From Escherichia phage UFJF_EcSW4: a DNA stretch of 40,299 nucleotides. Shown here one piece after another: positions 13,853 to 18,288 of the stretch (its first letter is position 1; each line of letters begins with the position of its first letter). The stretch lies in sequence record PP856269. One strand, written 5' to 3'. The notes under the pieces were generated by a model that was given only the letters and a program-made list of their open reading frames with translations, was not told the origin of the DNA and searched no databases. Made by a program: the position numbers and the translations under genes.

Positions 13853-16016
13853 TCTCAACTCAATCTATGGCACAGATATAGAGACTGACGGTCTACTAGA
13901 CACTGTGTCACAGTTCCATTGTGGTGTTATCATTAACGCTGGAACTCAGGCTACTGAGAAATATGGTGTTGCCCCTATGACTGGGCTGACAGGTGGATTC
14001 AAAGAGTACATAGACCGCATAGAATCTATTATGGCATCCACTGACGGTATGCTGGTTCTGCACAATGGTGTGAACTATGATATACCAGCCTTGAAAATAC
14101 TGAAGAAGAAATACTTTGGTAAGAACCTAAATGTGAATAAGGGTCGAATTATTGATACCTTGGTGCTGGGGCGCTTGATGTATCCAAACATTAAGTTCTC
14201 AGACATGGGCGCAGTGAAATCGGGTCGTCTGCCACCTAGTATGATGGGACGTCAGTCTCTTGAGGCTTGGGGCTATCGTCTTGGTGAGATGAAGGGTGAG
14301 TACAAACACGATTACGTTGCCAAGTGCAAGGCCGAAGGTATAGAATATAAGGCTGGGGACGAATGGTTGTTCCCGTCTCAGGAGATGCTGGACTATAACG
14401 TTCAAGACGTTGTGGTCACACTGGCGTTGTTCAAGAAGTTCCTGACTGACAAGTATTACTTCCAGTCTGAACAGTTCGCTTTCGACCAGATTTATGCGTT
14501 GCGTCTGGAACATGATGCTGCGTGGACCTGTGCGAAGATGGAACGTAACGGCTATCCGATGAACACCGAGATGGTCGAAGGTTTATATCGTGAACTCACC
14601 GTCAAACGTGCAGAGCTGCTGGACAAGCTGCGTTCGACTTTCGGCAGCTGGTACGCACCAAAGGGAGGCAAGGAGTTCTTCAAGCACCCACGGACAGGCA
14701 AGGACCTTCCGAAGTATCCGCGCGTCGTGTATCCTAAGGTCGGGTCAGTATTCAAGAAGCCGAAGAACAAAGCTCAACGCTTAGGTCTGGAGCCTTGCGA
14801 GTTCGACTCACGAGACACGATGGAGGGAGCGCCGTTCACACCTATCACTTACGTTGAGTTTAATCCGGGAAGCGGGGACCACTTAGCGAAAGTTCTGATG
14901 GAGCGTGGTTGGGAGCCTGTTGACTTCACTGACACTGGGAAACCTGTAGTCGATGACGAGACGTTAGAACACGTTAAGTTACCAGACGCAGAGGCTCAGG
15001 CTTGCGTAGAGCTGGTCCGTGAGTATCTGGTAGTCCAGAAGCGCATCGGTCAGGCGGCTGAAGGTAAGAACGCATGGTTGAAACTTGTAGGTCCAGACGG
15101 ACGTATGCACGGTTCAATCAACCCTTGTGGAGCAGTAACCGGACGTGCGACCCATAGTTCACCAAACATGGCTCAGGTCCCGGCTAACGGTGCTCCATAT
15201 GGTGAGACTTGCCGTGGTGCTTTCGGTGCAGCGTGGAACAAGAAGGACGGTAAGCCAGACCCTTGGATTCAAGTGGGAGTGGATGCTTCAGGTCTTGAGC
15301 TTCGTTGTCTGGGGAACCGAGCGGCTCCGTTTGATGGTGGCGCCTATGCGAAGACTGTGGTCGAAGGTGACATCCACTGGGCCAACGCAGTCAACGCTGG
15401 GTTAGCACCTAACGTCCCACGCGATAAGTCCAGCCACGACCATGATGCTTTCCGTAACAACGCTAAGACGTTCATCTATGCGTTCCTGTATGGTGCAGGG
15501 GCCGCTAAGATTGGACTGATAGTCGGCGGTGGTAAGAAGGAAGGTTCAGCTCTCATGAAGAAATTCATTGAGGGTACACCAGCCATAAAAGACCTCAGGG
15601 AAGCTGTGAGTAAGACGTTAATCTCTGAGTCCAAATGGGTAGACGGTGAGAATATCGTGAAGTGGAAACGCCGCTGGCTTAAAGGCTTGGATGGTCGACG
15701 CATCCACATCCGGTCTCCACACTCAGCACTTAACGCCTTACTTCAGGGTGACGGTGCGGTAGTCTGTAAGCACTGGATGGTACTGACTGAGAAGAAACTT
15801 GAAGAGGCTGGTTACGGTAACGGATGGGACGGCGACTTTGCGCTAATGGCTTGGATTCACGATGAATTGCAGATAGCGTGCCGTACTCAGGAGATAGCAG
15901 AAGATGTCGTCCGTATCGCTCAAGAGGCGATGCGCGAGGTCGGACGCTTCTATAACTTCAAGTGTGACCTTGATACGGAGGGTAAGATTGGACCAACGTG
16001 GAAAGAGTGTCATTGA
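13845..16016 (+). CDS. 5: DNA polymerase (family A, with 3'-5' exonuclease domain)
   Basis: 723 aa; FHCGVI, LEAWGYRLGEMKGEYK, DYNVQDVVVT, GAVTGRATHSSPNMAQVP, DASGLELRCLG, NAKTFIYAFLYGAG, HDELQ match T7 gp5; the frame is contiguous with no intein or intron. Confidence 0.97.
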   Translation: MFNLNSIYGTDIETDGLLDTVSQFHCGVIINAGTQATEKYGVAPMTGLTGGFKEYIDRIESIMASTDGMLVLHNGVNYDIPALKILKKKYFGKNLNVNKGRIIDTLVLGRLMYPNIKFSDMGAVKSGRLPPSMMGRQSLEAWGYRLGEMKGEYKHDYVAKCKAEGIEYKAGDEWLFPSQEMLDYNVQDVVVTLALFKKFLTDKYYFQSEQFAFDQIYALRLEHDAAWTCAKMERNGYPMNTEMVEGLYRELTVKRAELLDKLRSTFGSWYAPKGGKEFFKHPRTGKDLPKYPRVVYPKVGSVFKKPKNKAQRLGLEPCEFDSRDTMEGAPFTPITYVEFNPGSGDHLAKVLMERGWEPVDFTDTGKPVVDDETLEHVKLPDAEAQACVELVREYLVVQKRIGQAAEGKNAWLKLVGPDGRMHGSINPCGAVTGRATHSSPNMAQVPANGAPYGETCRGAFGAAWNKKDGKPDPWIQVGVDASGLELRCLGNRAAPFDGGAYAKTVVEGDIHWANAVNAGLAPNVPRDKSSHDHDAFRNNAKTFIYAFLYGAGAAKIGLIVGGGKKEGSALMKKFIEGTPAIKDLREAVSKTLISESKWVDGENIVKWKRRWLKGLDGRRIHIRSPHSALNALLQGDGAVVCKHWMVLTEKKLEEAGYGNGWDGDFALMAWIHDELQIACRTQEIAEDVVRIAQEAMREVGRFYNFKCDLDTEGKIGPTWKECH

Positions 16017-16047
16017 CCCTCGAACCCAGACCCTACGCTTCCACACC

Positions 16048-16329
16048 ATGCCTACCGGATGTATCGTCTGCGTGTCCCACAAGAGGAACCAAGATGGGTA
16101 CTTCCGGTACTCCATGGGAAGTTACAGGAAGGGCAACAAGTTCGCCTTCATGTTCCACCGATGGGTGTGGGAGCAGAAGCGCGGACCTATACCAAATGGC
16201 TACGAAATAGACCATTTGTGCTTGAACCGTGGGTGCTGCAACATAGAGCATCTACAGTGTATTCCAAAACGCGAACACGTCATTAAGACGAACCGTGAGC
16301 GCAAACTTGTTAAGAAGGAGTGTCACTAA
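16048..16329 (+). CDS. HNH homing-endonuclease-like protein (gene 5.3 position)
   Basis: From the first ATG after the polymerase stop: GCIVCVSHKRNQDGYFRY...HRWVWEQKRGPIPNGYEIDHLCLNRGCCNIEHLQCIPKREHV. The open frame continues upstream to 15904, overlapping the polymerase 3' end. Confidence 0.7.
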   Translation: MPTGCIVCVSHKRNQDGYFRYSMGSYRKGNKFAFMFHRWVWEQKRGPIPNGYEIDHLCLNRGCCNIEHLQCIPKREHVIKTNRERKLVKKECH

Positions 16330-16487: not shown

Positions 16488-16771
16488 TGGCTATTACTAA
16501 ACGTATTCGTGTGAGTTTTGATCTGAAGATGGTTGTTAACTCAAAGGAAGAAGAGACCATGTGTCGCCAACTGGCTGAGATGACTAAAGCCTACGCTGAG
16601 GGTGAGAAGCTGGATGGTCTTCAGATGGCTCTGGTCAAAACCGCAATCGAGTCAGGCCCTGAGTCTGCCCTTGAAATTGCCCTCAAGAAGACCATCAAGG
16701 AGGAGCTGGTAGACGCCTTTGGTGATGACCAGTTCGGAGTATCTAACCTGCGATTCGAGGTCAAGCAATGA
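16487..16771 (+). CDS. 5.5: gp5.5-like protein (H-NS-binding family)
   Basis: MAITKRIRVSFDLKM... versus T7 gp5.5 MAMTKRFKVSFDVTA...; similar length. Confidence 0.75.
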   Translation: MAITKRIRVSFDLKMVVNSKEEETMCRQLAEMTKAYAEGEKLDGLQMALVKTAIESGPESALEIALKKTIKEELVDAFGDDQFGVSNLRFEVKQ

Positions 16772-16977
16772 GTGAATACTTACGGGTCCTAGCGGCCCTT
16801 AAGTCCTGCCCGAAGACCTTCCAGTCCAACTATGTGCGCAACAACGCTGCACTGGTGGCTGAGGCTGCGAGTCGTGGACATCTAAGCTGCCTGTCTATGG
16901 ATGGGCGTAACAACGGTGCGTGGGAGATTACCGCTGCTGGCACCAAGTTCCTGAACCAACACGGAGGCTGCCTGTGA
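16768..16977 (+). CDS. 5.7: gp5.7-like protein
   Basis: LKSCPKTFQSNYVRNNAALVAEAASRGHLSC...GAWEITAAGTKFL is near-identical in pattern to T7 gp5.7. Confidence 0.85.
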   Translation: MSEYLRVLAALKSCPKTFQSNYVRNNAALVAEAASRGHLSCLSMDGRNNGAWEITAAGTKFLNQHGGCL

Positions 16978-17429
16978 AGATACCTGAAAGTCTGAAAGAG
17001 CTGGTCCTTGACATAGGTGAGTGTGAGTGCGAGAAGGAGCACCGCAAGTACGCTGAGTTCTACGCATCTTGGTCATACACCTTGACAGAGAAGGACGTTG
17101 AGTCCTACACCGAGTCTCCTTCTGAGGCTTATGAGTGGAGTCCGTTCATCGGACTGACCATCGTAGCCAGTGGTATGTGGAATGACAGCTACGGTTCAGA
17201 GGTAAATGACTGGGGAGTATATCGCCAGGTTGAGAAGGAGACTGAGATGTCTTCAAACTTCTGGAACCTGATGTCCCACCTCAACTCAGAGGACAACGAC
17301 ATGGCACATGAGTTCGCCAACAAATGGCTGAAGCCTGAGGTGACTCTGGAACGTATTGAGGAGCCTAAAGTTCCCTTGATGCCATATGCAGTCGCTATGG
17401 CTACAGGAGGTCTGGACGATGGGTGCTGA
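16974..17429 (+). CDS. Acidic hypothetical protein, about 152 aa (gene 5.9 position); start uncertain (GTG at 16974 or 16920)
   Basis: GTG at 16974 overlaps the gp5.7 stop with GGAGG 6 nt upstream; product is rich in Glu/Asp; no sequence similarity to T7 gp5.9 recognised. Confidence 0.5.
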   Translation: MKIPESLKELVLDIGECECEKEHRKYAEFYASWSYTLTEKDVESYTESPSEAYEWSPFIGLTIVASGMWNDSYGSEVNDWGVYRQVEKETEMSSNFWNLMSHLNSEDNDMAHEFANKWLKPEVTLERIEEPKVPLMPYAVAMATGGLDDGC

Positions 17430-18288
17430 GAAGAATATAGCTCTTGTTCTTGATGGCGATTACCTAGTATTCTCTTCTATGGCTGCTGCCGAGGAAGAGA
17501 CAGACTGGGGTGATGACATCTGGACCCTTATCTGCGACCACGAGAAGGCTCGCCGTATCCTTGAGAACACCATCGCTGAAATCGTTAAGAAGCGCAAGGC
17601 GTGGAAAGACGCTAAGATTGTGATGTGCTTTACTGATGATAACAACTGGCGTAAGGACGTTTTGCCTACCTATAAGGCTAACCGTAAGGGTTCTCGCAAG
17701 CCTGTAGGTTACAAGAAGTTCGTAGCCGAAGTGATGGCTGACCCACGGTTCAACAGCTTCCTGCGTCCAACGCTTGAGGGTGATGATTGTATGGGTATCA
17801 TCGGGACCAGACCTCAGATTGTCGGATGCGACCATGCGGTGCTGGTGTCCTGCGATAAGGACTTCAAGACCATCCCGAACTGTGAGTTCTTCTGGCTAAC
17901 CACTGGTGAAATCCTGAGTCATACGACTTCCGAGGCAGACTACTGGCACATGGAGCAGACCATCAAGGGTGACACTACAGATGGCTACGGCGGTATTCCT
18001 GGGATGGGTGAGGACATCACTCGTGCATTCCTTGACGAACCGTATTACTTCGTGCAGGAGAGCCGCGAGCTTAAGACTGGCAAGAACAAAGGCCAGATTA
18101 AGACTGAGTGGAAGAAGTATCCGAAGCGTGAAGACATGACGCTGTGGGACTGCATGGTTACACTGGCTGCTAAGGCTGGCATGACCGAGGAGGAACTTCT
18201 GGTCCAAGCTCAGGTTGCTCGTATTTGTCGAGCCTCTGACTATGACCCTAAGTCCAAGGAGGTCATCCTATGGACACCATCCATGTAA
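17419..18288 (+). CDS. 6: 5'-3' exonuclease
   Basis: LVLDGDYLVF, KIVMCFTDDNNWRK, YKANRK, KPVGY, SCDKDFKTIPNCEFFW, TIKGDTTDGY, WDCMVTLAAKAGMTEEEL match T7 gp6; start at the ATG with AGGAGG 9 nt upstream (track ORF begins at 17386). Confidence 0.93.
   Translation: MGAEKNIALVLDGDYLVFSSMAAAEEETDWGDDIWTLICDHEKARRILENTIAEIVKKRKAWKDAKIVMCFTDDNNWRKDVLPTYKANRKGSRKPVGYKKFVAEVMADPRFNSFLRPTLEGDDCMGIIGTRPQIVGCDHAVLVSCDKDFKTIPNCEFFWLTTGEILSHTTSEADYWHMEQTIKGDTTDGYGGIPGMGEDITRAFLDEPYYFVQESRELKTGKNKGQIKTEWKKYPKREDMTLWDCMVTLAAKAGMTEEELLVQAQVARICRASDYDPKSKEVILWTPSM

Follow-up and report, generated by a model that had tools for sequence, protein, structure and literature searches.

A modular, exchangeable acidic protein gene in the gp5.9 slot of Escherichia phage UFJF_EcSW4 and its possible role in counter-defence

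The window analysed here is the whole 40,299-nt stretch of DNA from Escherichia phage UFJF_EcSW4 (PP856269), a K1F-like relative of T7 that is assigned to Kayfunavirus. Between the gp5.7 homologue and the gene 6 exonuclease of this phage lies a single ORF, referred to here as the slot gene, and the same junction in T7 is the location of gene 5.9 (Table 1). The original prediction had placed this ORF at the gp5.9 position and coupled it translationally to gp5.7, and both statements hold, with the coordinates exact and the neighbours on either side as proposed. The GTG start (16974-16976) overlaps the TGA stop of gp5.7 (16975-16977) in the tetranucleotide GTGA. At the other end, the stop codon (17427-17429) lies beyond the gene 6 ATG at 17419, which matches the annotation in relatives, so that the two genes overlap by 11 nt and the last codons of the slot gene also serve as the translation initiation region of gene 6. 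A gp5.5-like gene (PHROG 1452) is also found upstream. Over the 1.5 kb around the slot gene, the Escherichia phages LNA3, phiHAO1-1, and SR04 share 96-97% identity with the window, and 250 records, mostly from Kayfunavirus, match this region. A second polymorphic site lies just upstream of the slot, where an HNH homing-endonuclease ORF (15904-16329, + strand; PF13392, E 4.6e-19) and the DNA polymerase gene overlap at the 3' end of the latter; this ORF is missing in the close relatives phiHAO1-1 and vB_EcoP_F, in which the polymerase is followed directly by a 52-aa gene, and TM1 and EFA-1 carry other inserts there.

Table 1. Features of the slot region in the window and slot or gene pair loci in other phages
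Feature	Coordinates	Strand	Basis or detail
gp5.7 homologue, upstream neighbour	16768..16977	+	PHROG 1334, E 7e-39; annotations in relatives
Slot-gene Shine-Dalgarno GGAGG, inside gp5.7 3' end, 6 nt before GTG	16963..16967	+	sequence reading
Slot gene CDS, 151-aa acidic protein, PHROG 4382 family	16974..17429	+	ORF; orthologue annotations; dN/dS ~0.23
N-terminal alpha/beta domain (N-domain), aa 1-89	16974..17240	+	AF2 pLDDT ~90 over most of the domain; alignment conservation
Exchangeable cassette	16978..17414		local blastn against CLB_P1, ST63, PM131, EV136_1, LS2; record survey
Motif-1 module, aa 92-120	17247..17333	+	hhalign, BLASTP, pN/pS 0.13
C-terminal strand (aa 122-127) and low-confidence tail (aa 131-151)	17334..17426	+	AF2 model, alignment
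Gene 6 Shine-Dalgarno AGGAGG, within slot-gene codons T144-G145-G146	17405..17410	+	sequence reading
Gene 6 exonuclease, downstream neighbour	17419..18288	+	PF02739, PHROG 107; relatives' annotations
CLB_P1 slot			'gp5.8', 78 aa, pI 4.3; PF25708 match 41.6 bits
Salmonella phage ST63 slot	L008:475-807		unrelated 110-aa protein, pI 4.33, no Pfam match
PM131 and HC12 slot			empty; gp5.7 leads straight to gene 6
EV136_1 slot			short or decayed sequence
Escherichia virus LS2 slot	L006:1467-1650		decayed remnant of the slot gene, with internal deletions
Erwinia phage Y2 gp58-gp59 gene pair	L020:2501-3143		
PP101 orf49-orf50 gene pair	L021:1483-2059		
Further gene pair loci	L024, L025, L004		

The slot gene is a genuine gene under purifying selection. 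A chance ORF was ruled out by its homologues, which number from 34 to 108 in protein databases, and by those in 174 phage records. The median pairwise dN/dS is ~0.23, against ~0.05 for the neighbouring gp5.7 and gp6; the gene is therefore constrained, yet it evolves 4-5 times faster than its neighbours. Constraint is unevenly spread, with pN/pS lowest in a short segment termed motif-1 below (0.13) and reaching 0.38 in the C-terminal tail. It had been allowed that the real start might be a far-downstream ATG giving a short product, and this candidate was rejected: relatives annotate the ORF from the same start position, at which five of seven orthologues have ATG, the window and pO2 being the two with GTG; pN/pS is 0.31 over codons 1-67, the stretch ahead of the first internal ATG; and residues M1, I3, P4, and K8 do not vary across 14 homologues. 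Within this stretch, codons 15-20 (17017-17034, GECECE) contain a two-codon tandem duplication (GAGTGT GAGTGC, 'EC-EC') that is found in the window and phiHAO1-1 relative to the 149-aa orthologues.

The product had been expected to be a strongly net-negative protein of ~152 aa. Its acidity stands, with 30 Asp and Glu residues against 12 Lys and Arg residues, a net charge of -18, and a pI of 4.35, and the proposed check of charge distribution found negative charge spread evenly along the whole chain; the length is 151 aa, however, and the charge density is moderate. Per residue, the net charge is -0.12, lower than that of T7 gp5.9 (-0.15) and of the motif-1-bearing proteins of the gp5.9 family PF25708 (-0.20), and several other proteins encoded in the window have a comparable pI. 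Acidity is kept throughout the family down to ~25% identity, with a median pI of 4.4-4.55. The protein is also rich in aromatic residues (6 Trp and 8 Tyr).

The slot protein is a member of PHROG 4382 (E 4.7e-46, residues 1-132 against positions 6-129 of the 130-position profile), a family of unassigned function in which the Kayfunavirus members carry an extra tail of ~20 aa. There was no Pfam match for the whole protein at E<=1 and no NCBIfam match, it is named 'hypothetical protein' throughout the databases, and no function for the family was found in the libraries or literature searched. Nor did the searches yield a homologue with a known but unrelated function, a result that would have spoken against the original prediction. 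The homologues fall into four groups: Kayfunavirus proteins at 80-98% identity; proteins of other T7-like phages, including Przondovirus and Pectobacterium phage Jarilo, at 40-58%; ~112-aa proteins from ~88-91-kb genomes or contigs of Ounavirinae (Felix O1-like phages), which match residues 1 to ~85 only; and a few proteins of Proteus and Providencia phages. Members from Klebsiella, Ounavirinae, and Proteus phages were recovered by sequence and also by fold. In Escherichia phage SUSP2, a 132-aa Ounavirinae homologue (L016:3974-4372) is encoded between nrdD and nrdG of the anaerobic ribonucleotide reductase, near genes for ribose-phosphate pyrophosphokinase and nicotinamide phosphoribosyltransferase.

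An AlphaFold2 (AF2) monomer model built from 47 sequences (mean pLDDT 81.5) predicts a globular alpha/beta protein with no coiled coil. It consists of five short helices (residues 5-14, 39-45, 49-58, 91-101, and 109-118), none longer than 11 residues, and five strands (16-19, 28-36, 61-70, 74-88, and 122-127). The N-domain contains two near-invariant motifs, E22-H23-R24-K25-Y26..F29 and G67-M68-W69-x-D71..G74-x-E76; across the 47 sequences, at ~30% identity, K25, G67, and G74 are invariant and H23, R24, W69, and D71 nearly so. This domain also exists without motif-1, as in the ~112-aa proteins of the ~88-kb Ounavirinae phages. It is followed by motif-1 ('FWNLMSHLNSEDNDMAHEFANKW'), which comprises a helix (91-101), the loop HLNSEDN, and a second helix (109-118), and whose helices are confidently modelled within the same compact structure as the N-domain. 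The tail, modelled with low confidence from residue 131 onward, is variable among homologues, and its residues 134-149 have a pLDDT below 50. No known fold was detected for the protein, and this includes the absence of a fold match to known DNA mimics.

Motif-1 ties the slot protein to the gp5.9 family. Its consensus, 'LMSHLNSEDNDMA.EF', recurs elsewhere as the N-terminal module of many PF25708 proteins, in which it is followed by a long helix, the core LEAGGVDNWxGY, and an acidic tail. A family profile search of 5.8 billion proteins recovered one such PF25708-bearing protein, P0108, at E 7.8e-4, to which the slot protein is 43% identical over 60 aa by BLASTP, and hhalign matched motif-1 to PF25708-type proteins with a probability of 98.4% over 29 columns and, in a second comparison, 92.9% (E 3.7e-7). 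These profile-profile alignments stop past motif-1, after 29-36 columns and short of the PF25708 core. For T7 gp5.9 itself, the original prediction of no obvious similarity was borne out: it scored a probability of 0.1% against the C-terminal profile of the family in hhalign, and no ORF in any of the six frames of the window was matched by phmmer when gp5.9 of the T7, Berlinvirus, or T3 type served as the query. No Pfam HMM, PF25708 (gathering threshold 24.5 bits) included, matched residues 91-151 of the slot protein even at E<=10, although PF25708 recovered T7 gp5.9 (27.8 bits), P0108 (51.5), CLB_P1 (41.6), ETEP21B (61.7), and Klebsiella phage 175028 (48.7) as positive controls. The core LxALEAGGVDNWxGY and the acidic tail are absent from the slot protein, and the sole core-like stretch, AMATGGLDD (aa 141-149), is a degenerate likeness of ALEAGGVDN that coincides with the ribosome-binding site of gene 6 and was therefore not counted as evidence.

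The motif-1-bearing PF25708 members, namely CLB_P1 gp5.8, the slot protein of Klebsiella phage 175028, Erwinia phage Y2 gp58, and PHROG 6163, share with the slot protein the 29-aa module LMSHLN(S/A/G)E(D/E)N.MA.(E/D)F, acidity, and a slot in the same genera. They possess the core and a poly-acidic tail, both of which the slot protein lacks, whereas they are missing its 90-aa N-terminal domain, and their own function is inferred from T7 only. T7 gp5.9 is the sole PF25708 member with experimental and structural support (PMC9836394; PDB 8B1R, 9GMB). It forms a dimer with a parallel coiled coil and a bracing beta-sheet at the N-terminus (PMC9836394; PDB 8B1R), and the AF2 monomer of the slot protein has neither the long helix nor this arrangement. 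The two proteins are alike in occupying the gene 5.7/gene 6 slot, in coupled expression, in being acidic, and in being non-essential; they differ in that they have no sequence similarity, in length (52 aa compared with 151 aa), and in the coiled coil of the one compared with the predicted globular alpha/beta fold of the other.

When the slot proteins are arranged in a series from T7 through Berlinvirus ETEP21B, the T3 type, and the CLB_P1 type to the window protein, adjacent types share modules and the two ends have nothing in common. As judged from the sequences, the tie to T7 gp5.9 is a chain of module sharing rather than homology. The ETEP21B slot protein (L005:1456-1641) is an intermediate that combines a T7-type N-terminal segment, VTVTREAWNDMQAYIQSLE, with a T3-type core, KLDALEAGGVDNWSGY, and the Pfam gp5.9 family is therefore itself a mosaic. 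The residues by which T7 gp5.9 contacts RecB (E36, D38/E39, and E45) lie in a coiled coil that is lacking even in T3-type PF25708 proteins; the RecB-arm-binding coiled coil is not a family-wide feature. In P0129, a metagenomic protein of 56 aa, motif-1 is joined to yet another kind of C-terminal segment, the third seen and unrelated to the others, as would fit a portable module.

A second association with the gp5.9 family is found in Chaseviridae, in which a gene for a protein of ~130 aa comes directly after a PF25708 gene with motif-1, the two overlapping by 8 nt. The pair is present in Loessnervirus Y2 (gp58-gp59), Fifi44, SSEM1, one metagenomic contig, and Suwonvirus PP101 (orf49-orf50), where orf49 is annotated as 'putative host recBCD nuclease inhibitor', and it lies downstream of genes for dUTPase, ligase, and a 5'-3' exonuclease. 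A profile of five downstream-gene sequences matched the N-domain family with an hhalign probability of 96% (E 4e-9, 91 columns). The initial profile of three sequences had given 95.2%, its 30 column-shuffled versions scored no more than 2%, and the other neighbouring gene family scored 0.1%. Single-sequence comparisons between the Chaseviridae downstream proteins and the N-domain were not significant, so the relationship is remote. The two products possibly form a complex. In the Carltongylesvirus phages ST32 and DE15, the gp5.9-family gene occurs without an N-domain gene. The PHROG 4382 family was already catalogued; its modular link to the gp5.9 family, like the gene pair of Chaseviridae, seems not to have been described before.

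The slot itself is a precisely bounded hypervariable hotspot, and the slot gene behaves as a horizontally exchanged accessory cassette. In comparisons with Kayfunavirus genomes whose slot is empty or differently filled, similarity breaks off exactly at 16977 and restarts at 17415-17428. In a survey of 1050 records, ~278 had flanks at least 80% identical to those of the window, and the slot gene is present in ~54 of them. Where the Kayfunavirus slot is filled by an alternative, it holds a small acidic protein of the CLB_P1 or ST63 type, and other slots are empty or decayed (Table 1). The same alternation is seen in Przondovirus, the T7-like phages of Klebsiella: a homologue of 127 aa with 43% identity occurs in KMI1, where it consists of the N-domain and motif-1, and in ~60 further records of Klebsiella phages, and phage 175028 has a 75-aa PF25708 protein consisting of motif-1 and the PF25708 core. 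Among metagenomic sequences, the in-frame deletion derivatives P0033 (91 aa) and P0122 (43 aa) retain just the two ends of the gene. Given these deletion derivatives and the empty or decayed slots, the slot gene is dispensable and often lost. Its fast evolution, together with natural deletion and decay (LS2, P0033, and P0122), is typical of host-interaction accessory genes. P0029 is likewise among the natural decay products, and the ends kept by the deletion variants bear the coupling signals to gp5.7 and gene 6. The C-terminal tail of the ST63 protein (LLDVTVPAMSKAKAV) is similar to the tails of the slot-protein homologues P0030 and P0035, a sequence likeness that suggests recycling of the 3' joint of the cassette.

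The reading we favour, with a probability of about 35%, is that the slot protein is a stoichiometric inhibitor in the counter-defence niche of gp5.9, directed against RecBCD or a related DNA-end or defence enzyme, and with a new, globular architecture. The gene would be expressed together with the DNA-metabolism genes through its translational coupling between gp5.7 and gene 6, and the product, with its two modules, an alpha/beta domain of ~90 aa and the 29-aa helix-loop-helix of motif-1, would bind a host DNA-end-processing or defence enzyme stoichiometrically and neutralise it, with RecBCD as the prime candidate. Inhibition would then be exerted by a globular domain in place of the coiled-coil DNA mimic of T7. 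We infer both the inhibitory role and its target, and place the protein in the same niche as gp5.9 because of the shared slot, the shared motif-1, and the adjacency of the N-domain to gp5.9-family genes. None of these three features makes the slot protein a gp5.9 homologue or shows that it inhibits RecBCD. It also counts in favour of a gp5.9-like role that the window contains no other gp5.9-like sequence, that acidity is kept throughout the family, and that the selection pattern is that of a host-interaction gene. Against it stand the missing PF25708 core, the lack of similarity to T7 gp5.9, the globular monomer model, and the moderate charge density; moreover, the N-domain-only versions sit in nucleotide-metabolism clusters of Ounavirinae, and different cassettes of one hotspot often differ in their targets. 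In addition, the most conserved polar residues include the basic H23, R24, and K25, contrary to what pure DNA mimicry predicts. The original prediction of a different or expanded DNA-mimic or anti-defence protein is thus upheld in part: the locus has the look of an exchangeable anti-defence-type cassette, but the protein is not an expanded gp5.9, as the Pfam core is absent and the predicted fold is globular.

Almost as likely as the favoured reading is that the slot protein serves anti-defence or host takeover by inhibiting something other than RecBCD, with another nuclease, a DNA-binding defence protein, and an SMC complex as examples of possible targets, and that it shares the hotspot and the module with the gp5.9 family only through cassette recombination. 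The hotspot houses unrelated cassettes, such as the ST63 protein, as well as the empty state, no known fold was matched, the gp5.9 core is missing, and the gene is fast-evolving and dispensable, all of which are in keeping with another target; even T7 gp5.9, going by paper titles and PDB entries 8B1R and 9GMB, targets both RecBCD and MukBEF. What tips the balance toward a related function rather than a random neighbour is that three independent associations with the gp5.9 family are seen, in the slot, in motif-1, and in the Chaseviridae adjacency. A further reading is that the protein is no inhibitor by itself but assists or modulates gp5.9-type proteins or the DNA metabolism of the phage, in which case the N-domain would dock motif-1, in cis here and in trans between gp58 and gp59 of Y2. 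AF2 packs the motif-1 helices with the N-domain in one compact structure, in Chaseviridae motif-1 resides on the upstream gp5.9-family protein with the N-domain separate and the genes overlapping, and the genes occur in DNA-metabolism modules beside exonuclease, ligase, dUTPase, and nrd genes. We nevertheless consider this improbable, as the window genome encodes no gp5.9-core protein to act as a partner, many phages, namely CLB_P1, Klebsiella phage 175028, ST32, and DE15, have motif-1 and the core without an N-domain gene, and the ~112-aa N-domain proteins occur without motif-1.

The conservation pattern of the N-domain raises the further prospect that the protein binds a small molecule or nucleotide, as a signal 'sponge', or is a small enzyme, with a putative site formed by the E22-H23-R24-K25-Y26 loop and the G67-M68-W69-x-D71..E76 hairpin. 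The invariant and near-invariant residues of the 47-sequence alignment, the Trp and Tyr content, and a size typical for phage sponge proteins would fit such a role, to which we assign a small chance, below that of a partner role. Finally, the gene might be non-functional filler retained just for the gene 6 translational coupling signals at its ends, as might be suggested by P0033 and P0122, which keep the two ends only, and by the empty or decayed slots. A confident fold prediction stands against this, and the purifying selection, at a dN/dS of 0.23 overall and a pN/pS of 0.13 in motif-1, together with the conservation of the family across Autographiviridae, Ounavirinae, and Chaseviridae, essentially refutes it.

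Returning to an inhibitor of the gp5.9 niche, a bolder and rather doubtful extension is that the slot protein founds a new-fold class of inhibitors of RecBCD or of a related DNA-end or defence nuclease. Motif-1 would then be a portable docking or assembly module shuffled between effector bodies, either the coiled-coil/acidic-tail core of gp5.9 or a globular alpha/beta domain, and in Chaseviridae each of the two bodies would have a gene of its own, the genes overlapping and their products perhaps forming a complex. RecBCD is central to bacterial immunity; certain retrons act as its guards and sense when it is inhibited. To our knowledge, few architectures of RecBCD inhibitors are known, these being Gam, T7 gp5.9, and Abc2. 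The slot family, which is widespread, has no known fold, and swaps with gp5.9-family genes, would offer either a new means of disabling RecBCD or a new counter-defence aimed at another target; if the protein has no such role, it is one more hypothetical accessory gene. The family is found in K1F-like phages and T7-like phages of Klebsiella, with remote versions in Felix O1-like phages and Chaseviridae, and phage therapy makes use of several of these groups. Other small acidic phage proteins, among them Ocr (gp0.3), Ugi, and Gam, likewise inhibit host DNA-binding enzymes. Also encoded in the window is a homologue of the DNA mimic Ocr (1376-1879, + strand; 167 aa, pI 4.05, net charge -31), which matches PF08684 over residues 8-94 (E 4e-30) and is ~50 aa longer than T7 Ocr, giving it a C-terminal extension.
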